Program-made: the position numbers and the translations under genes
The notes under the pieces: generated by a model
Seen by the model: the letters and a program-made list of their open reading frames with translations, nothing else
Databases searched by the model: none
Told to the model about the DNA's origin: nothing
IMG/VR virus record: IMGVR_UViG_3300028844_004072
Coordinates: 1 to 43,536 of that record
Length of the DNA: 43,536 nt
From: a virus
Lineage: Duplodnaviria > Caudoviricetes
Strand: one strand, 5' to 3'
Shown: one piece after another, positions 1 to 43,536 of the stretch
How positions within the stretch are numbered: the stretch's first letter is position 1
Layout: each line of letters starts with the position of its first letter

Positions 1-144
1 ACAGAATACCGAAAAGCAAAACACAGCCGTACTTAACGAAATCACCTAACCTATCGAAACATGACCCGATAGCCGGATACGATTACCCAGCGTTTACAAC
101 AAACACAACGATAAAGCAGCAAGTTCGATACGCAAGAGAGCTAA
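1..144. repeat. Terminal direct repeat, left copy (circular assembly overlap)
   Basis: nt 1-144 are identical to 43393-43536, and the reading frame continues through the junction. Confidence 0.97.
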
Positions 145-2096
145 TAGGTTCGCTCGAGACAACAACTAGTGAAGAAAACAAAACGTTTAACGAGCTATCA
201 GCGCAACGCGACGAAATAAAAAATCGCCGCGATGACGCTTACGCAAAACTTCGCAAGTCGAGCACCTTAGCGAATAGCGAAGTTTTCGTACTGGACGACC
301 TGCTTAACAAACGCGCACAAGAGGAAACGAAATCTATATCGGTAAAAAAAGTCGGCGTCGATGAAGGCGGAACCGATGACCCGATGACCGGAAAGCCGAG
401 AGACGTTTACGCTTTATATTCTGTGTATTACGAGCAAGACGAAAACGGGAATCGACGTGCAGTACCGTTCGAGGTGTATCGCGCAGCTATTGGGCGTCGC
501 AACCTGCAAGGGAAAAACACACCGCACGGTACGGCGGCAGAGAATGACGAAGAAGCGGCCAAGCAAATTCTCACCAGCGGTGCAGAAATAAGAAATTTGT
601 TTCTCGAGCATCCATCCATACCAGACCGTGACTACCATCGGGAGCAACGCTTTTTAGCAGAGCGAGAGGGGCGGAAAAAAGCGTATTTTGGAATGGAGCC
701 GATGATAAAACGATTACGCGCAGAAGCATACGCGGGCGAAACACACGCTCGGCAGGGAAGTTATGCGGAAGCGTTGGGAAAAATGCAATTAGCTAATGAA
801 ATCGCCGTGGGACTCAAAAAGGCCGGAGTCCCAATAGACCCCAAGCCGTTCAGCTACGCGCAAGATGACGCAGCAAATCTATCCAAAGCAGAGAAAGACC
901 TAGATTCATTTACAGACGTATCCGGGAAAGAGTTTGCATCGTTGCTTGTAAAAAAACAAACGAATCAACTCCGCAATATGCAACTCAAGGTGGCAAGTAA
1001 TCCCGAGTATCATCGCTGGTCGCCAAACAATAAAGCGGTCGACGAGCAAGGACTTCCGCTAATTATTTTCCACGGCACCGATTCAGGAGGTTTTGACGAG
1101 TTTCGACGTGGCGACGTTGAAGGACACGTTTATGGCTCTACAAACGTCGACGTTGCCGCAACATACACCGGCGGAAATTACCGGGACGACGTAACACCAG
1201 CACTCGCAAACACCGCAGAAGATGTAGCCGCTTCGCTATCGAACAGTCCGAGATTGCGGATGGCAAGAGTAACAGACAATAGAACCGGGCAGCAAAAATA
1301 CGCAGTGGTAAAGCAATTTGATTTTGCACCAAATCCGCCGCCGCTAACACGCGAGGCGCTCCGAGAAAAAGACAAGTTGATTCCATTGTGCTCAGAGGAA
1401 GAATTTGTAGTCCGATGGAACGAATGGTTAAGCAGCAAAGACCGAACGTGGGACATAGAAGCAAGAGGTGTGTACCCGTTGATATTCAGCTTGCAAAAGC
1501 CTCTTATCGTTGACGGTCAAGGAGCGACGTGGAGTGAAATACCAGTTATGCCGGAGGACGCAGGTATGCTATCCACCTCGGAGTTATTCAACAACAGAGT
1601 CGTTGCGGAATTAGTCGATATGAAATACGACGGCTACACGGATGGACTGCTCGACGACATACGCGGGTACGTTCGGCGATACCGCCAAACGGCGGATTTG
1701 GTAACGGGCGACGTAGAGACGGCTGAAAATATGGAGCGGCGCGTCGAGGAAATAATGGAAAAAGTTATGACCGGCACGTATAGCATGCAGCCGCTTTTTG
1801 ACATGATCGACGAAATTGCAGTAGAAGAACCACCATCGGAAATACTACACGATCTATTTGAAGTACCGCGAACATTGACGACACGCGAATACGCGCAGTT
1901 TGCAGAGGATCTTGGGCACGACGGAATTATATGGAAAGATATTCACGATCTTGGTGGATACCCGGACGCTTCCGTCTTAACCAGTGACGTTTTTGTTGCG
2001 TTCGATTATTCAAACGTTAAGTCGGCGCACAACATCGGCGGTTTCGGACAGAAACGCGAGGACAGAAACAAACTTTTATATTCGGCGGTCAGTTAA
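3..2096 (+). CDS. C-terminal 697 aa of the giant polyvalent protein (continues from 40293 across the origin); ends in an ART-PolyVal-type ADP-ribosyltransferase domain
   Basis: The frame is open from nt 3, upstream of the track's M at 384. Motifs VDEQGLPLIIFHGT (H at 1071), GVYPLIFSLQKP, GHDGIIWKD and VAFDYSNVKSAHNIGGF match the ART-PolyVal pattern. Confidence 0.85.
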   Translation, partial: RIPKSKTQPYLTKSPNLSKHDPIAGYDYPAFTTNTTIKQQVRYARELIGSLETTTSEENKTFNELSAQRDEIKNRRDDAYAKLRKSSTLANSEVFVLDDLLNKRAQEETKSISVKKVGVDEGGTDDPMTGKPRDVYALYSVYYEQDENGNRRAVPFEVYRAAIGRRNLQGKNTPHGTAAENDEEAAKQILTSGAEIRNLFLEHPSIPDRDYHREQRFLAEREGRKKAYFGMEPMIKRLRAEAYAGETHARQGSYAEALGKMQLANEIAVGLKKAGVPIDPKPFSYAQDDAANLSKAEKDLDSFTDVSGKEFASLLVKKQTNQLRNMQLKVASNPEYHRWSPNNKAVDEQGLPLIIFHGTDSGGFDEFRRGDVEGHVYGSTNVDVAATYTGGNYRDDVTPALANTAEDVAASLSNSPRLRMARVTDNRTGQQKYAVVKQFDFAPNPPPLTREALREKDKLIPLCSEEEFVVRWNEWLSSKDRTWDIEARGVYPLIFSLQKPLIVDGQGATWSEIPVMPEDAGMLSTSELFNNRVVAELVDMKYDGYTDGLLDDIRGYVRRYRQTADLVTGDVETAENMERRVEEIMEKVMTGTYSMQPLFDMIDEIAVEEPPSEILHDLFEVPRTLTTREYAQFAEDLGHDGIIWKDIHDLGGYPDASVLTSDVFVAFDYSNVKSAHNIGGFGQKREDRNKLLYSAVS

Positions 2097-5246: not shown

Positions 5247-7295
5247 ATGGCCACAGCAGTACGGACACAAATGACAGTCCCGCAAGCGAATGAAACAGAA
5301 GAAGATTTCATCGTGCGGTCGCACTACGCACTCGCGTCGGCTTTACCAGATCCGGCGCAACGAAACCGCGTTATCTGGCAAGCGTGGGATAACGCACGTG
5401 GTAACGAAATGTACGCTCGAGCATCGCAGCATTTTGCCACCGAGCAATACAGCCCGACGGAGCCGCGACCATTTTTTATGGAGCACGAAAAAGTCAACTA
5501 CGGGTCGGACGGATCCGAGCAAATCACTAACTACGACCTTGGTGAACTCACGAAGATTGTTCGTGAAAACAATCACCGGATCCAAGACACGGACGCATAC
5601 ACAGCCCTAGTCGATAAGCACACGCTACCACCACCGTATCGCGACCCAGATCCGCCAAAAAACCTAGGATTTGTCGGCCCCTACAGGCTGGGTATGGTCG
5701 GACGAAAAAATCCGCGATGGGGCATTTTTGCAAATGAATGGCAGAGAAACGACAAGGCAAAGCAGTTAAGCGATAGACCGAATCGAAGCGTTGAAGTGCT
5801 GCAACTTAAAGCTAACGGTCGTCGGTATATCGACCCGATAGCCGCGTTGTCGGAGGCACCACGGTTGCCACTTCCAACGACAGCACAGTACGCAGCAGAC
5901 GCAGAAGCGGAAGCTATCACCGTCGAAAGATACGACGCTACTACAGCTATTGGGTCGTTTCCGGGTAGCTCAAACACAATGATAAAGACCGCAAAAAAAG
6001 GCAAAGCAGATATGTACGGAAGCGCACCCGTCGATCAAGACATGATTCGAGAGGTACTAAACGCGTTAATGAGTACGGAGGAGTGGCAAACGATTAGCAA
6101 CGCTGCCGCGATGATCGGGGACGATCAACCCGTAAACACCGGACAAGGCGAGCTCGGCGATATGCCGATGGACGACCCGATGGCGGGCGGTATGGCTGAA
6201 CCGCCAATGGCCGAGCCAATGGCGGATCCAATGGCGGATCCAATGATGGGCGGCGAAATGGAAGAAGAATACGTACAGGAGGACGTAGAGAACGCACCTA
6301 TGCCCGATCAAAACGGGATCGGTCAAATGGGGCTAACCGCAGCGGCTCAGGGAGCGCACGCTAATAAAATGCTTGGCAATTCTGCCGGATCCGCGATGCG
6401 GAAAGGCGTAGACCGAAACGCAGCACCAGCACTAGCAGCAGCAGGGCGATTGGCAGCCGGAACAGCAGCGAGGGCAGCAGGAGGAACCGCAGCACGAACA
6501 GCAGGCGGGACGGCAGCGAGAGGCGCGGCACAAGGCGGAAAATCGAAGCTAGGGCAGACTGCAAAAGAGATGGGAACAGATATGGCAATCGACGCAGTAG
6601 CGAACAAAATCGGCGGTGGCGGCGGCGGTGGCGGCGGTGGCGGCGGCCAACAAGAAAATAAACCGGGAATCCTAGCGAGGATTCTATCAGGGCCGGGAGC
6701 GCAGGACGCAGCAGCGGCCCCACCCGCACAGTTTGGAGCCACCAAAGGCTATCACCGTTATTCAACCAACGCAGAGGACAATTCTATGCGACGCGATCAG
6801 TATGCAGCACTTACCGCCGAAAACCAGCAAATGCGAACCGAGCTCAACGAGCTCAAAAACCACAACGATAGCTTGCTTACCGAACAAGCGCAAATGTATG
6901 CAGCGACACAGCACGAAGTCGTGCAATTACGGCAAAACGCTATCGACGCAGAGCGAAAAGAGCGATTGACACACCTTGCACACCAATACTCAGCCGTCAA
7001 CCTACGGAACGAGATGGACGAGTGCCTATACGCAAGTGGCTCAGAGATGAGCAACGACGAGTTTGAAAAGCGAATTGAGTTAATTCAGCACTACGCAGCG
7101 GCTTCGGCACCATCATCGCCGCTAATCCCGCTCGGCTACGACGGAACCCTTGCAAACGGCGACGTTAATAGCGACCGCTTTGCTGCCAAGGTTGCAGATA
7201 AAGCACTCGAGTTAGTCAACGCCGGTATCAAATCAGGCAAGCGACTTTCCTATTCAGAAGCAGTAACGCAAGCAAAAACCGAGCTCGCAGAGTAA
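5247..7295 (+). CDS. Prohead protease/scaffold fusion (Mu gpI/Z-like)
   Basis: Lies just upstream of cement and MCP. The N-terminal globular part has DKH..., RSVE and PIAAL..AP. A low-complexity linker leads to a coiled-coil C-terminus ending YSEAVTQAKTELAE. Confidence 0.7.
   Translation: MATAVRTQMTVPQANETEEDFIVRSHYALASALPDPAQRNRVIWQAWDNARGNEMYARASQHFATEQYSPTEPRPFFMEHEKVNYGSDGSEQITNYDLGELTKIVRENNHRIQDTDAYTALVDKHTLPPPYRDPDPPKNLGFVGPYRLGMVGRKNPRWGIFANEWQRNDKAKQLSDRPNRSVEVLQLKANGRRYIDPIAALSEAPRLPLPTTAQYAADAEAEAITVERYDATTAIGSFPGSSNTMIKTAKKGKADMYGSAPVDQDMIREVLNALMSTEEWQTISNAAAMIGDDQPVNTGQGELGDMPMDDPMAGGMAEPPMAEPMADPMADPMMGGEMEEEYVQEDVENAPMPDQNGIGQMGLTAAAQGAHANKMLGNSAGSAMRKGVDRNAAPALAAAGRLAAGTAARAAGGTAARTAGGTAARGAAQGGKSKLGQTAKEMGTDMAIDAVANKIGGGGGGGGGGGGQQENKPGILARILSGPGAQDAAAAPPAQFGATKGYHRYSTNAEDNSMRRDQYAALTAENQQMRTELNELKNHNDSLLTEQAQMYAATQHEVVQLRQNAIDAERKERLTHLAHQYSAVNLRNEMDECLYASGSEMSNDEFEKRIELIQHYAAASAPSSPLIPLGYDGTLANGDVNSDRFAAKVADKALELVNAGIKSGKRLSYSEAVTQAKTELAE
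6612..6647 (+). repeat. GGY trinucleotide run encoding poly-Gly, next to GTAAR and PMAD/E peptide repeats in the protease/scaffold linker
   Basis: ggcggtggcggcggcggtggcggcggtggcggcggc, read directly from the sequence. Confidence 0.9.
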
Positions 7296-10954: not shown

Positions 10955-10982
10955 TTCACTTTATCGCACGAAAGGCTAAGAG

Positions 10983-11156: not shown

Positions 11157-11185
11157 CGACGTCACACACAACAAGGCAAAAAACA

Positions 11186-11683: not shown

Positions 11684-11693
11684 TGACACGTGG

Positions 11694-11722
11694 TTGACAC
11701 GTGATATGGATTATGGTAAGCT
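11694..11722 (+). promoter_or_regulatory. Second sigma70-like promoter
   Basis: TTGACA (11694)-N17-TAAGCT (11717) with a TGn extension; shares GTTGACACGTGA with the 10914 promoter. Confidence 0.65.
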
Positions 11723-11754
11723 ACTGTTTTGACGCTCAAACGAAAGGTAAAGCA

Positions 11755-12327: not shown

Positions 12328-12365
12328 TTGCTGCAATATCACTATTACTCTGGTGGATCCTATGA
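12324..12365 (+). CDS. Putative 13-aa hydrophobic micropeptide (MIAAISLLLWWIL)
   Basis: ATGA overlaps with both neighbours. Confidence 0.45.
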   Translation: MIAAISLLLWWIL

Positions 12366-12436
12366 GCGAAAAACAATCAGCGTTGCTAATTTTTCTTTTT
12401 TGGTTACTTGGTCTTTTAATGGCAGGTGGAATATGA
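12362..12436 (+). CDS. Putative 24-aa membrane micropeptide (MSEKQSALLIFLFWLLGLLMAGGI)
   Basis: ATGA overlaps with both neighbours; single hydrophobic stretch. Confidence 0.55.
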   Translation: MSEKQSALLIFLFWLLGLLMAGGI

Positions 12437-14138: not shown

Positions 14139-14446
14139 TGGGAAGCGAAAGAATAGAAAAAATCGTTTCGGACAGGATTTGGCAACGGCTCGCGGAACGA
14201 AACACGTCAGTCAGGCAGGTCGCTCGCGAGAACGGAGTTTCGAGCGCTTCGGTGCAGCGTATTGCAAACGGCACTCACGCAGGAACGAAGCACCTAGGGA
14301 AGCCAAGACAGTGCAATCCAAGAAGCCCCGTTGCAAAAGAAACTGTCGAGGCAGTAAAGAAGAAGCGACTAGACGGCGCGACGATTAAAGAGCTCGTAGA
14401 GTCGTTTGGTATTAGCGTTTCTAGTGTTTACAGGTTCATCAAGTAA
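14135..14446 (+). CDS. HTH DNA-binding protein (two HTH-like motifs)
   Basis: SVRQVARENGVSSASVQRI and TIKELVESFGISVSSVYR. Confidence 0.75.
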   Translation: MMGSERIEKIVSDRIWQRLAERNTSVRQVARENGVSSASVQRIANGTHAGTKHLGKPRQCNPRSPVAKETVEAVKKKRLDGATIKELVESFGISVSSVYRFIK

Positions 14447-14519
14447 AAAAAAGAAAGCCGGGCAATCACGAAATGAGCGTACGTGAAAACCCGGCTTCAA
14501 CGAAAGGTAAGGTCATTAT

Positions 14520-15392
14520 ATGTCGCAACAAAAAAAACACCACTGGTTTCCGCTTTATTCGGACGCGTGGGTAGTCGGAACTCGCGTATTGACGTACAGG
14601 CAGCAAGGAATTTACTTGCAGCTATTGATTCTGCAATTTCAGAGCGAATTTCAGGCAATCGACAAGAAGCGAGCGGCGAGAGTTCTGAACATCGAGCTAG
14701 ACGACGCGGATTTAGACGAAGTGCTTAATGAAAAATTTAGGCCGATTCGACTCGAAGGCGACCCAGCGAAACAGGTGTATCGCAACCAACGGATGAAAGA
14801 AACAGTCGAAGAACAGGAGGAAAAAAGCAAGAAGCGTGCAGCGAGTCTCGAGCGTGCTCGCAAAAGCAAGGCAGCAAAAGCGCAACGACTCGCGGACGAG
14901 TACGTGGAGTTGCGCTCTGTAACAGAGTGCAGCGGCAGCGCAGAGTTGCGTCCTGATACAGGCAAAGAGTTAGAGTTAGAGTTAGAGCTAGAGTTAGAGA
15001 CAGAGGAAGATAGTAAAGAGATAGATAACAACGCGAAGAAAACGCGTCGTGTAAATAAGCAAGCAACGGCATTTATGGATAGCTGGAACGAAGTAGCTCG
15101 AGCTCATCACGAATTGACTTGTATCGACACGTGGAGCAGAAAAAGGCAAGACAAGTTTCGCTCGCTCAAAAAAGCGATGGGCGAAAGTTGGCTAAACGAA
15201 ACGTGGGCACGGGCGTTGGCGCAACTACCCATTCCTAATCGCGAATCCTTTAGGTGGCAGCCTACATTTGATTGGTGCATGGCAGAGGCAAATTTACTCA
15301 AACTAGCGGAAGGTAATTACAGCAATGGCGCAAAAACGAAAACAGATAGCGAAAAGCGAACCGAGCGAGTCAATGAATTCCTCGAGTGGTGA
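14520..15392 (+). CDS. Replication initiator (DUF1376/YdaU-like N-terminus)
   Basis: WFPLYSDAWVVGTRVLTYRQQGIYLQLL; ELELELE linker; C-terminal FDW...N..KL.EG.Y typical of lambdoid O-type proteins. Confidence 0.8.
   Translation: MSQQKKHHWFPLYSDAWVVGTRVLTYRQQGIYLQLLILQFQSEFQAIDKKRAARVLNIELDDADLDEVLNEKFRPIRLEGDPAKQVYRNQRMKETVEEQEEKSKKRAASLERARKSKAAKAQRLADEYVELRSVTECSGSAELRPDTGKELELELELELETEEDSKEIDNNAKKTRRVNKQATAFMDSWNEVARAHHELTCIDTWSRKRQDKFRSLKKAMGESWLNETWARALAQLPIPNRESFRWQPTFDWCMAEANLLKLAEGNYSNGAKTKTDSEKRTERVNEFLEW
14966..15007 (+). repeat. AGAGTT hexamer tandem inside the initiator gene
   Basis: agagtt agagtt agagtt agagct agagtt agagac agagga. Confidence 0.85.
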
Positions 15393-15990
15393 ATTAGAGC
15401 GACAACAGAAGCTACGGTTTGCGGCTGTAATCGAGCAGCTTGGCGTGATTTACAACAAGGAGATTGACAAGGTTCTGTTACGAGTGTACTGGGCTGCGTT
15501 GAAGGACGTGTCTATCGACGAATTGGAAAAAGCCGTGTATTCGCATATCGCGCTCGAAAAGTGGTTTCCCAAGCCGTGCGAGCTTCGGAGAATCGACGCA
15601 ACCGCAGTCAGTTTTCGGGCGTGGGACACAGCGATCACAGCGGCAGAGCGAGTAGGTGCTTACAAAACCGTCGACTTCGAGGATCAGGCTATCAACGCAA
15701 CGATACGATTTATGGGCGGTTGGCGGCAGTTTTGCGCGATGAAGAACGATGAAGAACACTGGCGGCGGCAGGAGTTTTTGCAATCGTACCGGGAGTTTCG
15801 GAACCACGGCCTATCAGGTCATCAGGCGGCACCGCTTGTCGGTATCTCGCAAAAACAAGACGCGATTGGTATTGCGTCGCACCCGGTAGATGCGAAAAGA
15901 TTAACGGCGCGTACTGCAACTAACACGGCTCAAACACGAAAGGCATTAGAAAATGAAGGGATTAAAGTACAAGCGATTAAGGCTGTTTGA
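15325..15990 (+). CDS. Putative helicase loader (DUF6475-like); the start may be 15373
   Basis: Follows the initiator; YW..LKD...KWFPKPCEL and VDFEDQAINATIRFMGGW. Confidence 0.6.
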   Translation: MAQKRKQIAKSEPSESMNSSSGELERQQKLRFAAVIEQLGVIYNKEIDKVLLRVYWAALKDVSIDELEKAVYSHIALEKWFPKPCELRRIDATAVSFRAWDTAITAAERVGAYKTVDFEDQAINATIRFMGGWRQFCAMKNDEEHWRRQEFLQSYREFRNHGLSGHQAAPLVGISQKQDAIGIASHPVDAKRLTARTATNTAQTRKALENEGIKVQAIKAV

Positions 15991-16195
15991 AATCTGTTTG
16001 GTCAGGAAAACACGGGACACCGTGTTTGTCGGAGACAGTAACGACCGCGTTTTTTCGATACCGAGATTCGTCGAGGGCAACGTGCCGCACGATGCGATTT
16101 TCGAGGACGGAAGAATGTGGATTATTCAAGATTTAGAAAACAACACGGTTCGATGGAAATACAACCAGCCTATGTTTGACGGTTGGGATCAATAA
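15953..16195 (+). CDS. Hypothetical protein
   Basis: 80-aa ORF filling the operon. Confidence 0.5.
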   Translation: MKGLKYKRLRLFEICLVRKTRDTVFVGDSNDRVFSIPRFVEGNVPHDAIFEDGRMWIIQDLENNTVRWKYNQPMFDGWDQ

Positions 16196-16213
16196 CACAA
16201 AAAGGGGCGAGAG

Positions 16214-16531
16214 ATGGAATTATTACATTGGGCACTACAGCAGCGCGACGCGGCTCTCGAGTCGGTTTCAAAAACAACGTGCGAGCAATGGCGTTCGGAA
16301 GCAATGGCTTTGGTGCGACAAGAAATCAAAGACGGCGAGACTTTTACGGCGGAGGACATTCGATTGCTTTGCGAATCTCGAAATCTGGTTCCGCACCACA
16401 GAAATGCGTGGGGAGCGTTTACGAAATTTATCTTACGGCGAGGTTACATGATTGAAACGGGGGATTGGGTGCCGATGGTCAGCAAGCGAAGCAAGGGTCG
16501 TCGAACGCCGCAGTATCGGAGGACGGTGTAA
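16214..16531 (+). CDS. Hypothetical protein (possible winged helix)
   Basis: 105 aa; FTAEDIR...PHHRNAWGA pattern; TAATG coupling to the next gene. Confidence 0.65.
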   Translation: MELLHWALQQRDAALESVSKTTCEQWRSEAMALVRQEIKDGETFTAEDIRLLCESRNLVPHHRNAWGAFTKFILRRGYMIETGDWVPMVSKRSKGRRTPQYRRTV

Positions 16532-17172
16532 TGATTAAACTCACGAAGATCGGAATGAGGTGCGCAAGTAAGTTGCCGCTAATCAAAACTTACGACGACG
16601 ACGACGATTGCTTCTATTTTGAATTTCCATTCAAGGCAATTTCATTAAATCGGTATATCGCTTTACACCGAATGACGAGAATGAAGTTAAGGCGTCTCGA
16701 GGCGTTAATTATCGCATCGCATTTTTGCGCACCGCCGTCGCCAGAAGGTCATGACAACATAAAGCTCATGCACGCATTGAGAAACGAAATACTTTCACCA
16801 ACGGACAAAAATAAAGAGAAGGCAAAGACGGCTAAAAAGGAGCTAAAAGCACAGAAGTCAGCGATATTAGACGTGTTAAAACAGAAACAGATTCATTTAC
16901 CGCCACTTTGTAAGCCAATGCCGTTCGCGGAAGCAACAAGCGACGACGGCACAGCAAACAAGGTGTGCATTGCTTTTACTCACAAGCGACGTCGACTACT
17001 CGACATAGATAATTACGTAACTAAACATTTACTAGATACGTTCGTGCGAGTCGGATTGCTTGATTGTGACGATCCGCATTATTTGGCGGGCGTTATTCAA
17101 TATCATATTAAAACGGAAAAAGGCGACCCTTCGCCCGATAAAATAGGCGTGTACGTTTACGCGTACGATTAG
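16531..17172 (+). CDS. RusA-like Holliday junction resolvase
   Basis: ISLNRY and RRLLDIDNYVTKHLLDTFVRVGLLDCDD (D.DN..K..D..DD acidic set), with a central insertion. Confidence 0.7.
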   Translation: MIKLTKIGMRCASKLPLIKTYDDDDDCFYFEFPFKAISLNRYIALHRMTRMKLRRLEALIIASHFCAPPSPEGHDNIKLMHALRNEILSPTDKNKEKAKTAKKELKAQKSAILDVLKQKQIHLPPLCKPMPFAEATSDDGTANKVCIAFTHKRRRLLDIDNYVTKHLLDTFVRVGLLDCDDPHYLAGVIQYHIKTEKGDPSPDKIGVYVYAYD

Positions 17173-17225
17173 CAATGCGTGAATAGCTTGCAAGAAAGCG
17201 TCAGAATTGTGTAGGCTCCGAATTA

Positions 17226-17283
17226 CCAAGCGGGCTGGGGGTAGTCGGAGCCGCCCCTTTCGATTTACCCCGGCTCGTTGGGT
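17226..17283 (+). other. Long G-U-rich hairpin in the leader of the late operon
   Basis: AGCGGGCTGGGG pairs with CCCCGGCTCGTT, with an inner stem TAGTCGGA/TTCGATTTA. A possible TTGCAA-N18-TAGGCT promoter lies at 17188-17217. Confidence 0.5.
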
Positions 17284-17303
17284 GTTAAAAAAAAGGCAGG
17301 AAA

Positions 17304-17591
17304 ATGAAAATAGCGGTAATTTCAGTGGTCGCCGTCATCGGGCTATTGCTCGCAGACAACGGCGTGGACGCAGGCGTGCAGAAGGCAGGAAGATCGGTTA
17401 AGAAAGAAGTAAGCCGCGAGGTGAGCTCGGAGCCCGTCGAATTGCCGGAAATCAAGGTTGAGGCAATCATTCCAAGGCGTATGCTTTCGCGCCCGAGCGT
17501 TAGTCGGAAAATCAGCGTAGAACGCTCGAGGGTTGGCAGGAAGCGTCTATTCCCCGTTCTTCGTCGGCGAGCGCTAGGGTGCGAAGCGTAG
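17304..17591 (+). CDS. Small protein with signal peptide and basic C-terminus
   Basis: Hydrophobic N-terminus MKIAVISVVAVIGLLLA; AGGCAGG RBS. Confidence 0.65.
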   Translation: MKIAVISVVAVIGLLLADNGVDAGVQKAGRSVKKEVSREVSSEPVELPEIKVEAIIPRRMLSRPSVSRKISVERSRVGRKRLFPVLRRRALGCEA

Positions 17592-17965
17592 TTGTTTTAA
17601 CGGCGATTTGCCTACTTTACCGTGGCAGCGTCGCAGAAAACATTAAAATCGAGCAGCCGGGACGTAACCGCGTTCTGGCTGTTTTTGTTGCGCGCTCTCA
17701 GCAAATAGCACAAAGCCGAGCAGACTATATGGCTCACTACAATTTGCGTGGACACCCACCCGATTTGGCTGGCGATTGGAAACAGTTAGACAACGCGACG
17801 TTCGAGGGGGTAGGCTGGGCACGGACAAGTTTGGTTTCGACGTGCAGGCCGTCGGGTCGGAGCTCGCATAAAAACGACACTTCGAGAGTGCTTCTAGGCG
17901 ACGCGATTGCTCAGTCAAAACACGGCTACTTTCGCGTCAGAATATGGGGAAAAGCAAATGATTGA
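17579..17965 (+). CDS. Secreted small protein, possible minimal CAP/SCP-like domain
   Basis: Signal-like N-terminus; AQSRADYMA...GH...FEGVGW...TC.P...DAIA...GYFRVRIW. Confidence 0.5.
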   Translation: MRSVVVLTAICLLYRGSVAENIKIEQPGRNRVLAVFVARSQQIAQSRADYMAHYNLRGHPPDLAGDWKQLDNATFEGVGWARTSLVSTCRPSGRSSHKNDTSRVLLGDAIAQSKHGYFRVRIWGKAND

Positions 17966-18221
17966 AAAAGCATTGAGACGAGAGGAACGAGAGCGGATAC
18001 GAGAGTACGCGCGCGAGCGGTGGGAATCACGAATGAGACAGGGCGGCATGAACTCTCGAAACGCTTCGATGGTGCAGCAGGACGTCGAACGGTTCATTCG
18101 GAGGAAGAAAGTCGGAAGCGGCATCATCGCGACAATACTAATGAATATTGCGATTCGATTCGCTCAGTCCTTAATCAGAAAATGGCTCAACGATTGGATG
18201 GTGGAAAATGAAGGACGATAA
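17958..18221 (+). CDS. Hypothetical protein with a C-terminal hydrophobic/amphipathic helix
   Basis: Start moved to ATG 17958; GIIATILMNIAIRFA. Confidence 0.6.
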   Translation: MIEKALRREERERIREYARERWESRMRQGGMNSRNASMVQQDVERFIRRKKVGSGIIATILMNIAIRFAQSLIRKWLNDWMVENEGR

Positions 18222-18573
18222 AGGGTTCAGGTTTCTCGTTGGGTGCTTCGTAATTTTCGCGGGATGGAAACTTTACCAGAGCGGTTGGTTGCAATTCGTA
18301 TTCGGGGATTCAGTCGACGGCACCGAGGTCGGAGACGCAAACGCTATTGCGGTGTTAATTGATGCGTTGATGCAAGCAGTCGATTTAGTCGGATACGTTG
18401 CGATTCTATTGGTTACCGGTGCGTGGCCGACGATCCAGAGCATCATTCGATCAATAACACGTATGCTCGACCCGGAAAGTCACAAAACAGAGGGCGACGA
18501 TATTCGAGACAGTCTCGAGGTGCTGCGTATGGAAATGATTTCCGAGATACGCAAGCAGAACGAAAAGAAATAG
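18208..18573 (+). CDS. Membrane protein (holin candidate)
   Basis: Two hydrophobic segments and a charged C-terminus. Confidence 0.55.
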   Translation: MKDDKGFRFLVGCFVIFAGWKLYQSGWLQFVFGDSVDGTEVGDANAIAVLIDALMQAVDLVGYVAILLVTGAWPTIQSIIRSITRMLDPESHKTEGDDIRDSLEVLRMEMISEIRKQNEKK

Positions 18574-18574
18574 C

Positions 18575-18937
18575 ATGAACGCAGAAACGCAAAAAGCTAT
18601 TGTTCTCGCTGTAATGGCGTTAGTGATTTACTTGGCGTCGCAGACCAAGCCACAGGGGAAGCAGAAGGCGATGGACGAAACGCCGAACGCAATCGTTCTG
18701 GTCCCACCAGCGGGTATGGCGGGAAGCGCGCTAATCGACGAGTGGGCAAAAGAAAACGGATACGAGCTACGGCGTTACTCAGAAAACGCAACCGTCGATG
18801 ATACGGAAGCGTGGGTGTATCCGCTTTTTAAGGCGGCGAAGGCAAAGCAGCCAGCGGCAGCTATCGCGAAAAACGGGGACATAACGGTTGTAACCGTCGG
18901 CGACGATTTTCTCGAGGAGCTAGAAAAGTGGAAGTGA
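18575..18937 (+). CDS. N-terminally membrane-anchored hypothetical protein
   Basis: AIVLAVMALVIYLA. Confidence 0.6.
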   Translation: MNAETQKAIVLAVMALVIYLASQTKPQGKQKAMDETPNAIVLVPPAGMAGSALIDEWAKENGYELRRYSENATVDDTEAWVYPLFKAAKAKQPAAAIAKNGDITVVTVGDDFLEELEKWK

Positions 18938-19737
18938 ATTTTGACGCAACGCCGCGAGATGAGCACGGGCTAGTCGAGAGAGACTATTCATCGGAACCAG
19001 TGGGGACAGTTTGCGGTGGATTCGGCGGAAACTACCTACCGCGAAGCGAGTGGCCGGAGCGTATCGCGATGCACAGATCGCGACGCAGCCGACCTATCGA
19101 CTTTCACAAGTTCCACTCGGTACCGATTCTGAACCAAGAAAGTACGAAATATTGCTGGGCGTATTCCGTTGTGGCGGGCGTTATGAATCGACTTGCTTTT
19201 CAGGGTATCAATTCGCCAGTACCAGAGCTTTCAGCGACCGCAATCGGTGCCGTTGGCATGAACTACAGAAACCAAGGCGGATTCTGTTCGCAGGCCGTCG
19301 ACATGATCCAGAAGCAAGGCGGCGTACCTAATGCGTCCGCGTGGCCGAACGGCTTTCGTATTGATCGAAGCTACGAAAACACGGCAGAGGTACTCGAAAG
19401 CAGGAAACGCAACCGGCTAGTTGATTTTGTTGATCTTGGCGTCGACCTTGACGCAGCAATCTCAAGTATGATCGACGATGATCCGATTCCCGTTACGTTT
19501 AGCCTGCCTTGGTGGAGGCACGCGGTTCTTGGGCTCGAGGTTTTGGACACAGAACAAGGGCCGGCAGAAAGCCTAAAGCGGTATGGAATTCGGTTTGTAA
19601 ATTCTTACGGTCCCGGCTGGGGAAAAAACGGCTACGGCGAATTCTACGGATCCAAAATGGAAGCTTGGGAATACATCGCCGTGCAGCAAGTAAAAGCAAG
19701 AACCGAAGCAAATTTCAAACACGAAGTATTGGTGTAA
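18928..19737 (+). CDS. Papain-like (C1) cysteine peptidase
   Basis: Catalytic set NQESTKYCWAYS (Q...CW), WWRHAV (H) and FVNSYGPGWGKNGYG (N). Confidence 0.88.
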   Translation: MEVNFDATPRDEHGLVERDYSSEPVGTVCGGFGGNYLPRSEWPERIAMHRSRRSRPIDFHKFHSVPILNQESTKYCWAYSVVAGVMNRLAFQGINSPVPELSATAIGAVGMNYRNQGGFCSQAVDMIQKQGGVPNASAWPNGFRIDRSYENTAEVLESRKRNRLVDFVDLGVDLDAAISSMIDDDPIPVTFSLPWWRHAVLGLEVLDTEQGPAESLKRYGIRFVNSYGPGWGKNGYGEFYGSKMEAWEYIAVQQVKARTEANFKHEVLV

Positions 19738-19742
19738 TTTCG

Positions 19743-19997
19743 ATGATAGCAGAGACAGATATTACGCAAGTGTCGATGTTGCTCGGTGCTGTGGCTACTC
19801 TGGGCGGTGTAATAGCAGCCTTATGGAGGCAGATGATTGCACACTTCGGGAGGGTTGACGAAAAGCTGGACACAACACATCGGCAGTTGCGAGAGTGTCA
19901 AGAAGATAGGATTTTAATTTGGCAAACAATCGCAAGGCAACAAGGCCTCGAGGTCGAAGTGCTTCAAAAAAAAAGCGAACTTGGAAAAAGGCACTAG
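19743..19997 (+). CDS. Small single-TM plus coiled-coil protein (holin-like)
   Basis: Start moved to ATG 19743; MLLGAVATLGGVIAALW. Confidence 0.55.
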   Translation: MIAETDITQVSMLLGAVATLGGVIAALWRQMIAHFGRVDEKLDTTHRQLRECQEDRILIWQTIARQQGLEVEVLQKKSELGKRH

Positions 19998-25110: not shown

Positions 25111-25452
25111 ATGTTTCAGCGGTGGCGAAAACGTCGACTCGAGAGGCGAGTACGTCGGGAGCAGTTGCAAAGGTGCATATTTACGTACGAAACGCAGCAA
25201 GGAACCCGGCACGGGGATCCGATGCAAATCGCTATGGCGTTAAAAACTGATCCAGATTACCTGCCGCGACACCTCGACGAAGCACTAAAGAACGATCCGA
25301 TTTCAATGGAAATTGTCGCAAATGCAGCTTCTCGAGCTTTCGGTATCCCGCGACTCAAAGAAGCTACGGGTGACGGCATGACCATCGCGGAGCTTATCGG
25401 TTTGGTCGACGCTTTCGATCTATGGTGCTACCGGCTTCAAAAAAAAACGTAA
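25111..25452 (+). CDS. Tail assembly chaperone (lambda gpG analogue)
   Basis: Ends CTT CAA AAA AAA ACG TAA (LQKKT*) and overlaps a -1 frame ORF, just before the TMP candidate. Confidence 0.7.
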   Translation: MFQRWRKRRLERRVRREQLQRCIFTYETQQGTRHGDPMQIAMALKTDPDYLPRHLDEALKNDPISMEIVANAASRAFGIPRLKEATGDGMTIAELIGLVDAFDLWCYRLQKKT

Positions 25453-25718
25453 TGTTTACGGACGTCGCAGCTACCTACGGAGCGGGCGACCTATCTCAGC
25501 TAATCAGAAAACGCTACGACCTAGCCTTCAGTTTGTGGTTAAATAGCAACCGATCTCGGCTTCGACAAGCGGAAATCGTAAGGCTCGGAGCTCTTACAGC
25601 AGTCAGCGGGGGGCAAGGAAAAGGCTGGTTTTACGCAAATACCGATACACGCGAAGAAGCTATAAGCCAGTACGAGCGGCATAAATCGCAGATGAACAGG
25701 GAATCGGCAAAGCGATGA
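25439..25718 (+). CDS. -1 frameshift extension of the tail chaperone (gpGT analogue)
   Basis: A9C slippery run at 25439-25448; the -1 frame is open to 25718. Confidence 0.65.
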
Positions 25719-37371: not shown

Positions 37372-38970
37372 ATGAAAAAAGACGACGCAGCGCTACCAGC
37401 GGAGTTTCTCTACAGCAGGGCAAAAGACCCAGCGGCGGGAACGTCGGGATCTCCGAATTTTAGCCGAGAGATTTTGCCGCACGTTAGCAGCGTAAACGGC
37501 AGATACGGGCTAGTAAGCTATTCGTACCTATCCGCAGACCAAGCGATTTCCGATAGCCGAGAAAACGCGTATCGGATGCGTAACGATTGCGGGATAATGG
37601 AATCCCTGCACGCGAGACAACGCGCCGTTGCTCTACAGAATTGGTCGATTGAGCCCGAGGATTCTAGTAGCTACGAGCAGCAAGAGCTCGTTCGTTGCAT
37701 GACAGACATTTTGCAGGAAACGCCGCGATTTACCGAGATGCGACGCTGTTTGCTCGAGGCGTTATGGTACGGGCGATACATGACGCTCGGCACGTTTGAA
37801 AACAAGAGTATTGGCGGAATTAACCGTATTTGCTGCAACGGATGGAGCCCTCGCAACGGCGACAAATTGAAATTTAGATTCGACGACGGGACGCTGAAGC
37901 ACGTAAACGGCCAAGTCGGTATCCGCGTGAGCACCGCATATTCGGCACCAAGAAATTATCTGGACCCGACAACCGGAGAGGTTGTTCAGAAGGTACAGCC
38001 TACGGAGGAAGGGCTTGTCTATTGGCTGGACAAATGGGAACGTCGTCAGTCAGTCGTGCACAAGCACATGATCGAGGACGCACCGTTTTTCGAGCCAAAG
38101 ATGGCCGGGCGAATTAACGGCGTCGGTATCCGCGACTATATCTATTGGGATTGGTACGCAATGATCGAGTGCCTACAGCGAGTCGTGGAATACTTAGACA
38201 GAGCCGCGTTCGGCGTCGAAATATGGCCGTATCAGGCAGGTAGTCCAGCACAAAAAGCGGCGACCGAAAAAGCAGCCGAGGAAGCGATGGGAGGCGGTCG
38301 AACCATCATTCTCGCACCGATTCAGCCCGGCGAGGACCAAGAGCTCTACGTTCCAAGGCTTATTGAGCCGGGCCTAGGCGGTATCAACACGACTATCGAC
38401 ATGATACGAACGTACTGGGGTCACAAGATCAAAAGATTTATTCTAGGACAAGTGTTAAGCAGCGAGGCAGAAGCTACGGGACTCGGATCCGGCGTTGCCG
38501 ACGCTCACTTAGCTACGCTTGCCGATATTGTGCAATACGACAGCGTTAATCTCGAGGAAACAATCACGACGGATTTTCTTCGTCCATTGCAGCTATGGAA
38601 CTTTCCCAAAAGCGCTAACATACGATTACAGTTCCGCATTAGCACCGAGGAACCGGACAGCGACCGACGACTTGCTTCGATGAAAATGGCGTGGGATATG
38701 GGCATGAAAATTAAGGCCGACGAAGTTGCCGACACTATCGGCGTGTCGATGCCCGATGCAAGCGACGAAGTATTACAAAATCCGGCGTTCATGCAGGCAG
38801 GGCAAGCAGCGATGGGGATGCCAGAGGTTGAGTCGCAAATGGCGGCAATGCCACCGGCAGGAGTTCCAGCATCGAAGCCAATAGACTTGGGGCAGATAAT
38901 TGAGCAGAACAGCGCAAACGGCGCGGCAATGCGGCGAACGTTCAAAAACCGAGTCGAAACGTATTTGTAA
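37372..38970 (+). CDS. Portal protein (DUF935/Mu gp29-like)
   Basis: LLEALWYG and ILGQVLSS...GSGVADAH...D...LEETITTDFLRPLQLWNF. Confidence 0.88.
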   Translation: MKKDDAALPAEFLYSRAKDPAAGTSGSPNFSREILPHVSSVNGRYGLVSYSYLSADQAISDSRENAYRMRNDCGIMESLHARQRAVALQNWSIEPEDSSSYEQQELVRCMTDILQETPRFTEMRRCLLEALWYGRYMTLGTFENKSIGGINRICCNGWSPRNGDKLKFRFDDGTLKHVNGQVGIRVSTAYSAPRNYLDPTTGEVVQKVQPTEEGLVYWLDKWERRQSVVHKHMIEDAPFFEPKMAGRINGVGIRDYIYWDWYAMIECLQRVVEYLDRAAFGVEIWPYQAGSPAQKAATEKAAEEAMGGGRTIILAPIQPGEDQELYVPRLIEPGLGGINTTIDMIRTYWGHKIKRFILGQVLSSEAEATGLGSGVADAHLATLADIVQYDSVNLEETITTDFLRPLQLWNFPKSANIRLQFRISTEEPDSDRRLASMKMAWDMGMKIKADEVADTIGVSMPDASDEVLQNPAFMQAGQAAMGMPEVESQMAAMPPAGVPASKPIDLGQIIEQNSANGAAMRRTFKNRVETYL

Positions 38971-38985
38971 ACAGAGCCAAGAAAA

Positions 38986-40296
38986 ATGGAAAATTCAAAA
39001 TTACGGACACCAAAACGAGCGGAAGCATCCCCGCCGGTAAAGATAAATGCGCCGCCAGTAAAAACAAATGCGCCGCCAGTAAAAACAAATGCGCCGCCGG
39101 TAAAGATAAATGCGCCGCCGGTAAAGATAAATGCGCCGCCAGTAAAGACGAATGCGCCTAGCCGCGATGATAATTTACGAGGGCAAGCTACAGGCAATCA
39201 GCGCCAGCAGGCAAAGCCAACGTTTCGCGACACGGTAGAAAAAAAGCAGCAAGAGATTGCAAACGAAAAACAGAGCAGTATTACGCACGACGCGAAAAGC
39301 ATCGCGAAATCGCTCGGGGTCGACATAGAGACGGCTAAAAAATTACTAGAGCGGGGAACATTCGACGATCCGCCGCAGCCGGAGCAAAAACAGGGCAACG
39401 AAAAAGACGAGGCTCCGAAACAGAAAAGCGAGCCGCAGCAACCTCCAAAGCCACCACCACCACCCGGTTCACCAACTGACATGCGTCGACCACCGGTTTA
39501 CGAGACAACGCAGGCAGGAATTGACTTACAGGGACAAGACCCGACCCTAGACAGCCATATCGTCGCTTCCGGGTCGTTCGACGCAACACCGGATCAATTA
39601 CAGCAATTCGCACAAATGCTAGGATTGCCTAATTCGGAAAGCATTGAAAACGGACACCAGTTGCGGCTCGCGATTACTGAAAGCAATGCACAGCAAACCT
39701 TACGCGACGTGCTTCAAAAAACCGGTTATTTACCGCCAGAGCCAGAGCAACCCGGTATTTTCGGCGATTTTCGCAAAGGATTTGGCGAAGGGTACGCAAA
39801 GACGAGCGGATTGAATCTCGCGAAGCGAACCGGTGGAAAAATTCTTGACAAGGTTGCAGATGCAGCTATTGGGAGATTAAAAGGTCGTTTTCAAGCGGGT
39901 CAGTATGCAGCGGTCGCAATGAAGTCGTGGGACGAAATGACGCCGCTCGAGAGATCGGATTACGAGGACGAAGAAGATTACAACCGGCAATGCAAGAGCT
40001 ACGGAAAAAAAGAAGTCGACCGTTTACAGGCGAGCGGTAAATCGGAGAAACCCGGAATTGAAATGCCGAGCAAAAGCGTCGACAACGAGGACGCAGAAGA
40101 AGGCGACCAGCTAGGGCTATTCGGTGAAGGAAAAAAGGCAAGCAAAAACAAAAAGTTCAAGCTAGAGAACGAAAAAGAAAAGGGCAAGCAAAAGCTAATG
40201 TTTGACAGAATGGACGACCACCCCGACCAGCAATCTTTATTCGGCACGTTCGCCGAAGCGGTAGAGCGATATAGCGTTGACTTAAAAAAAAAGTAG
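38986..40296 (+). CDS. Low-complexity head-associated protein; short product and N-terminus of the frameshifted giant protein
   Basis: 436 aa, ends GAC TTA AAA AAA AAG TAG; PPVK[IT]NA repeats; QxxLF-like motifs. Confidence 0.8.
   Translation: MENSKLRTPKRAEASPPVKINAPPVKTNAPPVKTNAPPVKINAPPVKINAPPVKTNAPSRDDNLRGQATGNQRQQAKPTFRDTVEKKQQEIANEKQSSITHDAKSIAKSLGVDIETAKKLLERGTFDDPPQPEQKQGNEKDEAPKQKSEPQQPPKPPPPPGSPTDMRRPPVYETTQAGIDLQGQDPTLDSHIVASGSFDATPDQLQQFAQMLGLPNSESIENGHQLRLAITESNAQQTLRDVLQKTGYLPPEPEQPGIFGDFRKGFGEGYAKTSGLNLAKRTGGKILDKVADAAIGRLKGRFQAGQYAAVAMKSWDEMTPLERSDYEDEEDYNRQCKSYGKKEVDRLQASGKSEKPGIEMPSKSVDNEDAEEGDQLGLFGEGKKASKNKKFKLENEKEKGKQKLMFDRMDDHPDQQSLFGTFAEAVERYSVDLKKK
39031..39156 (+). 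repeat. 21-bp tandem repeat x6 (PPVK[I/T]NA)
   Basis: Variants ccgccggtaaagataaatgcg and ccgccagtaaaaacaaatgcg. Confidence 0.95.
40282..40296 (+). promoter_or_regulatory. Putative -1 recoding site (A9G followed by stop)
   Basis: TTA AAA AAA AAG TAG contains A AAA AAG. The -1 frame opens only at 40281 (stops at 40272 and 40278) and then runs 1731 codons from 40293. Confidence 0.7.
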
Positions 40297-43200
40297 ATAG
40301 GTACGGGCAAGAGGATTCGATTGACGGGCAGGGAGGCCCGCAGCCAACACGCATCGGACACAATATCGGCGATAGCGTAAGTGTTCCGAAGTACGAAAAC
40401 GTCGACGGGCAGCGGCAGATTACCGGAACGTATGATTTTACGGTAACGGAACACGACGGACACAACGCCACCCTGCATCACCCCGAAGCGGGCACCTTTA
40501 CGTTACCCAAAGACAGCGTAAAGCACTTCAGCGACGACCTGAACCAAATTACCGACGTGCCGGAGCACCCGAGCAACGCGGCAATAAATACTCTACGCAA
40601 CGGGCAGGGTACGTTTCTCGGCAAGGGCGACGACGGGCTGGTTTACGACACCCACGACGGTAACGTGGCGAAAGTCACCACCGTTGTCCCCTACAACCTT
40701 CAAAATTTCCGCCACCACACGCACGCGGTCGCCGACGCACGACGACAGGCCGAGATTAACAATCAAGCGTACAACGAAGGCCACGACGTATTCCTGCCGC
40801 AGCAATTTGAGGAGCACGGGGAAAAAGGTTTTACCACACGTCCAAAGCTAGAGATTGGCGGCACGTTGTCGCCTATGCAGATTGCCGAATACCGAGAAAA
40901 GATGCAAAGGGCTTGGGAAGCCGGGTGGAGAGTAAACGATACGGTTCAGCACGGAGTCGACGCGGAAGGTCGTATTCGCGTATATGACACCGGCAAGATG
41001 AGCAAAATTAGCCCGTCGCAAGATCCACAGGGATTCGACTTAGACGATTGGGGACAACTCTCCCACGCCCGCAAGTTGATGAGCGAGCACGGACACTATG
41101 ACGAGCAGAGCGATTCAGACGACATACGCGATTTTCTGAACGACGACTCGATGCAGCAACTTGCTTGGTACAACTCGCAGCACAAGCCGAAAGACAAAGT
41201 AAATCCGCTAGAAACGTTTGCACCGAGCCAATGGAAGCGGTTTACGGACGCAATTTACGGGTTGATCCAAAACGAAAGCGAGGAGCTAGGGTTTCACGTC
41301 GATGATGTTAGATCGTTGCTCGACGAAATAGATTCACAAGTAAAAGCAACGAGGCAAACACAGCCAGCGTTTACAGCCAAGACAAATGACGAAAACGCCG
41401 ACTTCTGGATTACGCGAAAAGGCGGCGAAAAAACGGTGGGCACGCCACATAAAGATTTTCGCAAAGAAAGCATCGGCATTACGGTCGACAAAAACCAGCT
41501 TGACCCAGCGTATGCGTTTTATTTGTTCCAGCACGTCAAAGATAACTTGAATTTTTGGGAGCCGCGTGCAAGGGGCACGCTCAATCTGAAAAACATTAGG
41601 TTGAGTGACGTGAAAGAGCTCGCGAAGGAAGTAGCTCCGGCGGACACAAAGCCAGTACCGAAAGGTTACGAGTCAATACTGCCGCTGCGAAAGGCTCTCG
41701 ACAAATACGAGAGCGAAACAGCTAATCGAGTGCTCGACAAAAGACTGCTCAACGCTCAAGCAATATTCGACAATGCAGTTACCGAATACGAGCAATACGA
41801 CGACGACGATCTGCCGCACGGCGAAAGCCTCGACGCTCATATCTATGACAGAGATTTATTTTCGCAGCTTGTTCCCGACCTAAGCGAACAGGATTTGGCA
41901 ACACTTTCACTTGCAGCGTACAGAACTGGCCCGTATCACGACGACGACAACTACCTTGTAGCCGGATTTGAAATCGAACCGAGCGAATTGTCTTACGGGT
42001 CAGACACCAGAGACGCAATCGTGTCAGCACTCACGTTGCAAGCCGATCTCGGATTAAATCACAAAGGAGAAAAATTCGCGATTGGTCAGAAAGATTACGA
42101 GGGCGTGAGCTACGAGCCGCAAACCATAAGGGAGCACGAATACGATGCGTTTCTGCGCAACCAATATTTAGAGACAGACGATTTTGGGTTAGCCGGATTC
42201 ATTACCGCCGATGGAGCAATGCTTGATTTAAGTGACGGAAGCGATAGCCGGATCGTAGACCATCGCGACGCCGCTATGACGGACGACGCGGCTAGGCGAT
42301 GGGGCTTAGAGCCGGATATGGGCAAAGACTATAGCCAATACCACAAATTGCACCACATTCTTTACAACGCCAACGCAATCAGATTTGACGCAAACGCCAA
42401 TATGCTTGATATGCCCGCGTACCCAACAACGGCACAGCTACAAACCATCGCAGACTTCATAAAAGAATATGCACCAGACTATATGGTGCTTCAACTCGGT
42501 GATGTTGAGTGGGACGCAGGCAACCCGACTATCGGCCTTTTGATGCGGCAATTCGAGTCGGTGGCAAACGGCATTAACCCGGGCGACGAAGGTTGGCCGG
42601 GCTCGGAGCATGACGACGAAGAAGAAGATTACTACGCAGCACGCTATGGGGCGGAGGACGACCCGATCAACCCAGACAATCTCGACGATGGGACGCCACC
42701 CGAGCCGAAAACAGATACATCGGATAATTACCTAACTATTTCAGAACCCAAGGGCAAGACGTACGAAAAAGGGCTCGGGAAGTCGCAATCAATCGGAGAA
42801 CCGCGAGAGATAGCGAAGGAAGCCGTTTTGCAAGCAGACGATTTTGAACAATTCGACCACAAGGCGTATGCAAATCAACCGATGTCGATTAACGACGGTG
42901 CGAGACTAATTAGCGCCTACGAATATCATTTAGAGGGCAATCACGCTCCAGCGCGAACCGAAGAATACGCAAGAGAGAACATTGAGCTTTCGCATCTTGT
43001 TCCAGACTTGTATCGACGCGACGAAAAACTACAGGATCTATACAAGCGGGTTCACCGAGCCGACAACGACCACCCAGACGAAGAAAACGATGAATACTAT
43101 TACCACGTTACTGAAAGACCTAACGCAGCTACTTACCTAAGCGAAGAAAACCTACAAGACCAGAATCCAGCCGGGCTCGATTTGATTGAAAAACAGGATC

Positions 43201-43536
43201 TTCGGTACTGGATGAGTTATTACGCACACAAGCAGCGGCAACGCAATATTGAACAAAATAAATTAGGTTTTAATAACGCGCCGCTATCAGAAGAAAAAGA
43301 CAGCCCGGAGAACAAAATGAAGTCGCAGTATTTTGAAAACTGGCGGCGGTATGCAAACAGTTCGCCACTAGAGTTCGACGACATACAGGTTCACAGAATA
43401 CCGAAAAGCAAAACACAGCCGTACTTAACGAAATCACCTAACCTATCGAAACATGACCCGATAGCCGGATACGATTACCCAGCGTTTACAACAAACACAA
43501 CGATAAAGCAGCAAGTTCGATACGCAAGAGAGCTAA
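40293..43536 (+). CDS. Giant polyvalent protein, middle part (kinase-like, HsdS-like and further domains); continues at nt 3
   Basis: Translated by hand: no stop from 40293 (VDRYGQEDSIDG...) to the end, in the same frame as 3..2096. Missing from the ORF track because it runs off the window end. Confidence 0.9.
43393..43536. repeat. Terminal direct repeat, right copy
   Basis: Identical to nt 1-144. Confidence 0.97.

Follow-up and report, generated by a model that had tools for sequence, protein, structure and literature searches.

Polyvalent proteins are large multidomain proteins encoded next to virion genes, for which packaging and injection have been predicted (Iyer et al., 2017; PMC5512222). 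Recoding in phages has been described for tail chaperones and for short C-terminal extensions of capsid or tail proteins. Here we analyze a locus in which the two appear to meet, in IMG/VR virus record IMGVR_UViG_3300028844_004072 (Duplodnaviria; Caudoviricetes), whose full 43,536 nucleotides constitute the stretch analyzed (hereafter the window). An open reading frame (ORF) encoding 436 aa, ORF A, ends in a tract of nine adenines (A9), beyond which a frame of 1,731 codons, ORF B, continues in the -1 register. We propose that the tract is a conserved programmed slip site giving protein A together with a minority, likely packaged A-B fusion of 2,167 aa, and place the probability of this reading as a whole at roughly 0.75. 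Polyvalent proteins, phage frameshifts and slippage on A9 are each already known, and the open-access literature searched gave no example in which a slip controls a polyvalent or ejected protein. At this locus recoding appears to set the dose of a multi-enzyme effector, suggesting a way for a phage to make host-harmful cargo without overproducing it.

The locus resembles the systems described in PMC5512222 in combining a large multidomain protein beside virion genes with an ADP-ribosyltransferase (ART) domain of the ART-PolyVal type and an apparently truncated kinase, and in having relatives in which domains of this kind are fused to portal or minor head proteins. Disparate domains are present as a kinase fold and ART-PolyVal within one 1,731-codon frame, located after the genes for terminase and portal and before the 'head scaffolding' gene at 7330. 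It differs in that the long part is startless and would be reached through a -1 slip, and in that the kinase does not match PF18762. The words 'frameshift' and 'slippage' are absent from the main text of PMC5512222, whose supplementary architectures may list related proteins. An ADP-ribosyltransferase on a head-region protein is also known from MuF-VIP2 of Microbacterium phages, but these are single in-frame genes with an ART of another clade, and no slip is described in the account of them given in PMC7302621. The closest hint of a slip-gated case is that PRFect flagged MuF-like and VIP2 genes among its unannotated predictions in PMC10885494, which cites the in-frame MuF-VIP2.

As in lambda G/GT, one phage late gene would here yield a short and a -1-extended product; the lambda products are small chaperones absent from the virion, whereas the present extension amounts to ~196 kDa with predicted enzymes. 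The phage appears to use A9 at a G/GT-type site (25439) too. The dnaX gene of Thermus thermophilus similarly has a nine-A run, with stop codons nearby in the non-productive frames and without evident RNA structure, although there the slip gives the short product and here it would give the long one. T7 gp10B is an example of a recoded capsid extension. Recoded C-terminal extensions of structural-region proteins have been described in T7/T3, phage A2 and Listeria phages (PMC5009743); the known capsid and tail extensions are short and mostly immunoglobulin-like, unlike the 1,731 aa of effector-type domains found here, and ORF A is not the major capsid or tail protein. Retroviral and totiviral Gag-Pol, in which a -1 event attaches enzymes to a particle-associated protein at a set ratio, with possible cleavage (PMC5009743), provides a functional analogy without homology; here the virus is a double-stranded DNA tailed phage, its cargo is predicted to modify host proteins, and one phage subclade dispenses with the fusion.

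The ORF A/ORF B junction and its conservation

The features that define the junction in the window are the following.

38986..40296, + strand: ORF A, 436 aa (48 kDa), the short product, with C-terminus AVERYSVDLKKK; an open reading frame directly after the portal gene
40284..40304, + strand: slip cassette, 21 nt, A9GTAGATAGGTAC, invariant in five lineages and without indels in four sequencing runs
40293..43392, + strand: first part of ORF B, in the -1 frame, with no start codon before the conserved region (frame analysis and read variants)
1..2096, + strand: second part of ORF B, reached over the circular junction (spanned by L016; contiguous in L003, L006 and L009)
43393..43536, strand. : terminal direct repeat of 144 bp (identical to 1-144), which marks the circular junction

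The phage record that makes up the window is circular, with a length of 43.4 kb, and has the same 144 bp at both ends (1-144 equal to 43393-43536); an independent assembly (L016) runs gapless for 4,269 nt over the circular junction. The 3' end of ORF A reads TTA AAA AAA AAG TAG, with A9 at 40284-40292 followed by a G, the zero-frame TAG (40294-40296), the +1-frame TAG (40298-40300) and GTAC; the portion of the cassette after the tract is GATAGGTAC, and its -1 translation is K-K-K-V-D-R-Y. The -1 frame carries stops at 40272 and 40278 and is then open to the end of the window and on through 1..2096, giving 1,731 sense codons for ORF B from 40293 and 2,167 aa for the A-B fusion. The original prediction, made from the sequence alone, had described this ending, the two upstream stops, the 1,731 open codons and a junction-spanning product of ~2,170 aa, all of which were recovered on recomputation.

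That prediction had also asked whether the tract is A9 and not A10. Near-identical DNA occurs in 19 sequencing runs from nine marine and sponge studies among the 24 matches listed, and the contigs of four of four runs, from four studies, have A9 with no inserted or missing letter. The tract is bridged under a 31-letter rule by X8, X11 and X17, while X15 stops 24 nt beyond it; X8 is possibly the source sample. Bare tracts of at least nine A are expected 2.3 times per genome under an order-3 Markov model and are seen three times on the gene strand; it is the position and conservation of A9 that exceed chance, and the bare tract does not.

Relatives were gathered from viral and metagenome contigs, and a search for the junction pattern matched 15 of 63 loci, many of them redundant. 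Close relatives present two junction types, a slip type and an ATG type. In the slip type, A9 (A10 in L009) is followed by GTAGATAGGTAC and ORF B lies in the -1 frame; it comprises the window and seven other records, namely the near-copies L015-L017 and the diverged lineages L003, L004, L009 and L019. Comparison of five lineages (the window, L003, L004, L009 and L019) showed the 21-nt cassette to be invariant in all five, the longest invariant run in the portal gene being 11 nt and portal third-position identity 46-57%. The portal is far better conserved overall; still, one codon is kept at only 60 of its 426 invariant residues. All four V-D-R-Y codons of the cassette are fixed, against a background codon invariance of 1/31 for Val, 2/44 for GAT, 1/42 for Arg and 2/21 for Tyr, and part of this fixation is due to the zero- and +1-frame stop codons that overlap there. 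The tenth A of L009 lies on the 5' side of the tract and preserves the -1 relation. A C-terminal LKKK closes all 12 ORF A homologues (39-98% identity), three of which are the types of the window, L003 and L004. The conserved KKx* ending with a slippery run anticipated by the original prediction is thus present in relatives, which keep the tract, the stop and the -1 frame, and an in-frame A-B gene did not appear in the (weak) searches made.

The first conserved residue of ORF B is R24 in the -1 frame, and 12 of 16 read variants in 40293-40875 are synonymous in that frame; ORF B is under purifying selection. The first in-frame ATG, at 40875, is residue 199 and falls within the kinase fold, as had been proposed. 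An earlier GTG at 40557 (residue 93), missed by the original prediction, is GTG in three of the five lineages and GTT in two, and no ATG, GTG or TTG upstream of 40905 is common to all five. None of 11 close ORF B homologues in a 50%-identity library includes ORF A in frame; the called starts lie inside the conserved region in nine and near the junction in two. Since nine of the 11 were called from internal starts, slip-gated polyvalent proteins may hide elsewhere.

A second tract of the same kind is found in the tail gene region.

25439..25447, + strand: second A9, at the end of a 113-aa gene (25111-25452); tail-chaperone-like G/GT site, from gene order

Here the -1 frame is open for 90 codons, to 25718, and A9 is present in five of five close relatives. 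In each of four Planctomycetota prophage loci of 10-21 kb a corresponding run is the sole A9, assigned from homology in L046-L048 and from position in L045; in L047 it follows a head-tail adaptor and a homologue of gene 9366 and precedes a long Ala/Gly-rich gene. Two small overlapping ORFs thus meet at a conserved -1 site among tail genes, and gene order alone suggests that 25111-25718 is a G/GT-like tail chaperone pair, in which the recoding may be transcriptional and not ribosomal. In the slip-type records G001, G002 and G005, the A/B site and the tail-chaperone-like site are the sole runs of at least nine A; the ATG-type records G003 and G004 have three and four such runs, and no long alternative frame accompanies the additional ones. 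The third A9 of the window (19966-19974), close to where a small membrane-type gene ends, is absent in four of four homologues, and was set aside as a slip signal as probably incidental.

Polymerase slippage and ribosomal frameshifting as candidate mechanisms

Programmed recoding at the ORF A/ORF B junction is very probable from the sequences, as no other reading accounts for the fixed cassette, the lack of a start and the signal in common with the tail site. It had been put forward in the original prediction, and the tract, stop and -1 frame kept in relatives, together with the lack of a conserved ORF B start, uphold it. Under the proposed mechanism, most transcripts would give the 436-aa protein A; host RNA polymerase would slip on A9 and add one A, placing a minority of transcripts in the ORF B frame, and the minority product would be the 2,167-aa fusion with its predicted kinase and ADP-ribosyltransferase.

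The sequences make RNA-polymerase slippage on A9 the likelier agent, at slightly better than even odds, and it may act together with the ribosome. It is favored because all 15 sites examined (five A/B, ten tail) have nine or ten A's, in two codon phases, exceeding the need of a heptamer; because both other frames stop within two codons at A/B, the zero frame after one codon and the +1 frame after two in five of five lineages; because no stimulatory structure was found; and because tRNA-Lys(CUU) is present in two of five candidate hosts, all incomplete Planctomycetota genomes. Nine A's or T's are described as an efficient slippage run, and for Thermus dnaX both the two-tRNA point and the nearby stops in other frames have been noted (PMC5009743). 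Single-sequence folds downstream of the tract were no better than shuffles (z -0.30 and -0.18) with programs that omit pseudoknots, and the consensus fold was weak (-4.3 kcal/mol, with an unfavorable covariation term). A hairpin 35 nt downstream, present in three of five lineages only, was rejected as a stimulator, and inspection of the alignments revealed no purine tract conserved 5' of the run that could act as a Shine-Dalgarno-like stimulator.

The same fusion could arise through a ribosomal -1 frameshift on A_AAA_AAG or A_AAA_AAA before the UAG, an explanation that we consider a serious contender, if the less probable one. Both heptamers are in the correct phase, and the dnaX-type A_AAA_AAG recognized in the original prediction occupies 40287-40293 in zero-frame phase in five of five lineages; in E. 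coli no heptamer is more shift-prone, and the lambda G/GT shifts are ribosomal (PMC5009743). Against this explanation, the sites retain nine A's although six or seven would be enough, in two phases and with no conserved downstream structure, and the heptamer occurs twice more in frame within ORF A (39240 and 40131) without a long -1 frame. The candidate hosts, moreover, can have tRNA-Lys(CUU).

Several observations weigh against the reading proposed here. The phase of A_AAA_AAG suits a ribosomal shift, and the direction is -1 at every site, which points to the ribosome, one-direction shift being a criterion for ribosomal frameshifting (PMC3711429). At the tail site 16-93 codons pass before the +1 frame closes, and the tail-chaperone label has no PHROG, Pfam or NCBIfam match to a chaperone, tube or tape measure. 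Homologues of the gene at 2097-4916 in ATG-type records contain in-frame A9 encoding Lys-Lys-Lys (L039 at 15239 and 15515, L041 at 8790, L023 at 11282), with no long alternative frame; together with the unconserved tract at 19966, these indicate that A9 by itself can be tolerated and need not be a signal. Such toleration in another gene of the ATG clade implies that slipping on A9 is modest or context-dependent. No natural in-frame A-B gene was found in database searches, weak by the tool's own note, and the agreement of the four sequencing runs rests on assembled contigs, which drop rare variants. Finally, the tract is absent from the ATG type, a single tight subclade (L006, L007, L021 and L023) in which ORF A ends CGG TGA and ORF B has its own ATG 4 nt after the stop; fusion to ORF A is therefore not obligatory. 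The original prediction that an independent start is unlikely holds for the slip lineages, which have no conserved start; in this subclade the tail can be made without ORF A. In the kinase tree the ATG clade joins slip-type L009 and L019 (support 100/100), for which reason loss of the slip appears the simpler reading of its origin; a single slip clade was not rejected by the approximately unbiased test (p 0.17 for the portal, 0.10 for the kinase), the outgroups being long branches.

The predicted cargo and its probable delivery

ORF B contains the following features, for which kinase-region residue numbers are counted from 40281.

40368..40541, + strand: small beta-rich N-terminal domain of ORF B, upstream of any in-frame ATG, GTG or TTG (alignment and model)
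40575..41015, + strand: predicted minimal protein-kinase domain (AlphaFold2, Foldseek)
41364..41627, + strand: mobile module of ~90 aa (placement across lineages)
41589..42572, + strand: conserved region with GFI..DG..LD.S..DHR motif (36-39% identity to L006/L009)
1041..2063, + strand: ADP-ribosyltransferase domain of polyvalent proteins, with inserts (Pfam ART-PolyVal)

The beta-rich domain, with strands at residues 32-76 of the structure model, ahead of the kinase, is invariant in all six aligned rows at R24, G26, H27, F53, T54, V55, D59, G60, H61 and V80-F83. Candidate catalytic features of the predicted kinase include the LGKGDDG loop, K131, D220, Q223 and DTG (236-238). Its AlphaFold2 model, from a six-row alignment, has a mean predicted local distance difference test score (pLDDT) of 70, and Foldseek matched it to protein kinases with best E-values of 2.4e-4 in PDB and 7.5e-14 in BFVD; minimal kinases gave the best target-normalized template-modeling scores, about 0.5, at moderate model confidence. 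The region has no Pfam match, Kinase-PolyVal (PF18762) being absent at E up to 0.5, and an Atlas PF18762 cluster at 0.91 is a lead only. The kinase family spans 273 clusters, many of them of long proteins.

The ~90-aa module lies in ORF B of the window, L003 and L004, and in ORF A of L006, L007, L009 and L019. It matches DUF6943 weakly in four of seven rows (best E 0.0014), and a suggested likeness to restriction specificity domains found no support. The middle regions of ORF B received no PDB, Atlas or family assignment. ART-PolyVal (PF18760) scores 34-35.6 bits against a cut-off of 31.2 and was detected in eight of eight close homologues scanned, five of them above the cut-off, with a second copy in L006 and L009. 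All four C-terminal ART copies contain HGT, HVYGS and HDGII motifs, candidates for the H-Y-D triad, their assignment to strands 1, 2 and 5 being read off the alignment. Where the original prediction spoke of several enzymes, a kinase fold and an ADP-ribosyltransferase are borne out, and support stops at these two domains. ORF B terminates in the motif L[LVMS]Y[SQ]A, which is conserved. At 42704-43380, X15 and X17 carry a co-occurring allele in which unlike sequence of about the same length stands in place of two ORF B blocks (357 letters for 360, and 277 for 271); the cargo thus varies within populations.

Two further genes bear on how the products might reach a new host.

37372..38970, + strand: gene for the portal protein, immediately upstream of ORF A (PHROG 113, E 1.6e-23)
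5247..7295, + strand: 682-aa gene, putative scaffold/protease, before the probable capsid genes, rich in the motif [RQHLE]Y[AS][ASTV]

ORF A, to which no Pfam family matched, consists of a low-complexity N-terminus, a conserved middle and a C-terminal module with Q-x-x-L-F motifs, which we take to resemble sliding-clamp motifs and regard as candidates. At its start, 21-bp tandem repeats (39030-39160, encoding PPVKT/INA) vary in copy number in the near-identical L016 and P0164. Portals of relatives match Pfam Portal_Mu, and in the more distant L011, L036, P0030, P0034 and P0118 the kinase and/or ART-PolyVal is fused in frame to a portal. Single ORFs of 1,560-2,400 codons occur at L011 9878-15787, L036 5297-12232 and L070 995-5683; in the first two a Mu-type portal is joined with domains of effector type (ART-PolyVal, InPase, LPD1, kinase), and that of L070 has a portal-like start and the ORF A C-terminal module.

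As has been suggested of polyvalent proteins, the products would enter the head and be delivered on infection. We regard such packaging as probable because ORF A and ORF B lie between the portal and the probable capsid genes, because kinase and/or ART-PolyVal are fused in frame to the portal in relatives, and because polyvalent proteins set a precedent (PMC5512222).

More tentatively, a head protease might cut at ERY|S and DRY|G around the slip, freeing the cargo from A. The motif [RQHLE]Y[AS][ASTV] occurs six times in the 682-aa gene against once in 8,847 aa of 29 other proteins, and is present in ORF A and ORF B too. Tyr motifs flank the junction, with ERYS before it and DRYG after it; DRYG lies outside the exact pattern, which was picked after the sequences had been viewed. 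The 682-aa gene itself has no family match above cut-off, and homologues are found in L045-L048. A full Gag-Pol-like strategy, in which a polymerase slip would set a low ratio, a Tyr-motif protease would release the cargo and the same A9 would drive the tail chaperone, is similarly speculative. If true, it would describe a planctomycete phage family with transcriptional slippage at two loci, one subclade of which has naturally exchanged the slip for an ATG. The second A9 site provides an internal control and the ATG subclade a natural comparison.

Alternatively, the slip may be only a dimmer for toxic kinase and ART cargo, with ORF A no carrier and B following its own route into the head or acting inside the infected cell. 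The ATG-type subclade makes B without A, and the conserved C-terminal L[LVMS]Y[SQ]A of B could be a signal of its own. Against this, the ~90-aa module moves between ORF A and ORF B across lineages, and the C-terminal module of A stands in frame inside long polyvalent single ORFs of L047 and L070, which suggests that A and B form one polyprotein unit; the dimmer is possible but, on balance, rather doubtful.

Remaining alternatives, host and genomic context

That ORF B is a separate gene, translationally coupled from a weak or non-canonical start such as ATT 40320 or GTG 40557, seems improbable. A real-looking ATG does exist at the matching place in one subclade, with TTG there in L009; ATT 40320 lies within a 29-nt stretch common to the window, L003 and L004; and at the protein level the database homologues P0002 and P0005 are called from near the junction. 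No candidate is shared by the five slip-type lineages, however, GTG 40557 would remove the conserved beta-rich domain, and the invariant A9 cassette would be left unexplained. Neither a promoter-like site (sigma-70 consensus only) nor a terminator-like site on the + strand was found in 38800-41000. In L015 a stop seems to follow 1,027 codons; it falls past the end of that contig's match to the window and was set aside.

Phase variation, in which replication slippage at A9 would toggle a single long gene within the population, is very improbable. Homopolymers are classic sites for it (PMC3711429) and L009 has A10, but the window, seven of seven other slip-type records and four of four sequencing runs are all out of frame, the extra A of L009 is 5'-sided with the -1 relation intact, and ORF B is under purifying selection. 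A continuous gene broken by homopolymer assembly error, favored by nothing beyond the general risk of error at homopolymers, can be dismissed, as the same break recurs in independent studies and five diverged lineages.

PHROG identified the terminase (34971), the portal (37372-38970) and the 'head scaffolding' gene (7330). Gene 7795, a probable capsid named from position alone, gave no match in a profile search. Its relatives at 46-56% identity are found in five Planctomycetota genomes (six loci returned), in one case on a 1.13-Mb contig, and a planctomycete host is therefore likely from sequence. The sixth locus (L044) is a 44.7-kb contig in a bin labeled Gammaproteobacteria, likely a binned virus and no evidence of host. 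No cultured relatives were found among 50,697 phage records, and a scan with P0010 as query returned no further locus.

Directly after ORF B, positions 2097-4916 hold a 939-aa gene (PHROG 33618) whose two related internal segments each open with F..A....Y[RK]A; the C-terminal HELCH of its product resembles a zinc-peptidase signature and is a candidate for one. The region 10168-19997, between the head genes and the tail chaperone, encodes a YqaJ exonuclease and a DnaD-like loader (recombination/replication) and a papain-like peptidase; in L045 and L047 the head and tail-chaperone genes adjoin, unlike in the window, where this region intervenes.

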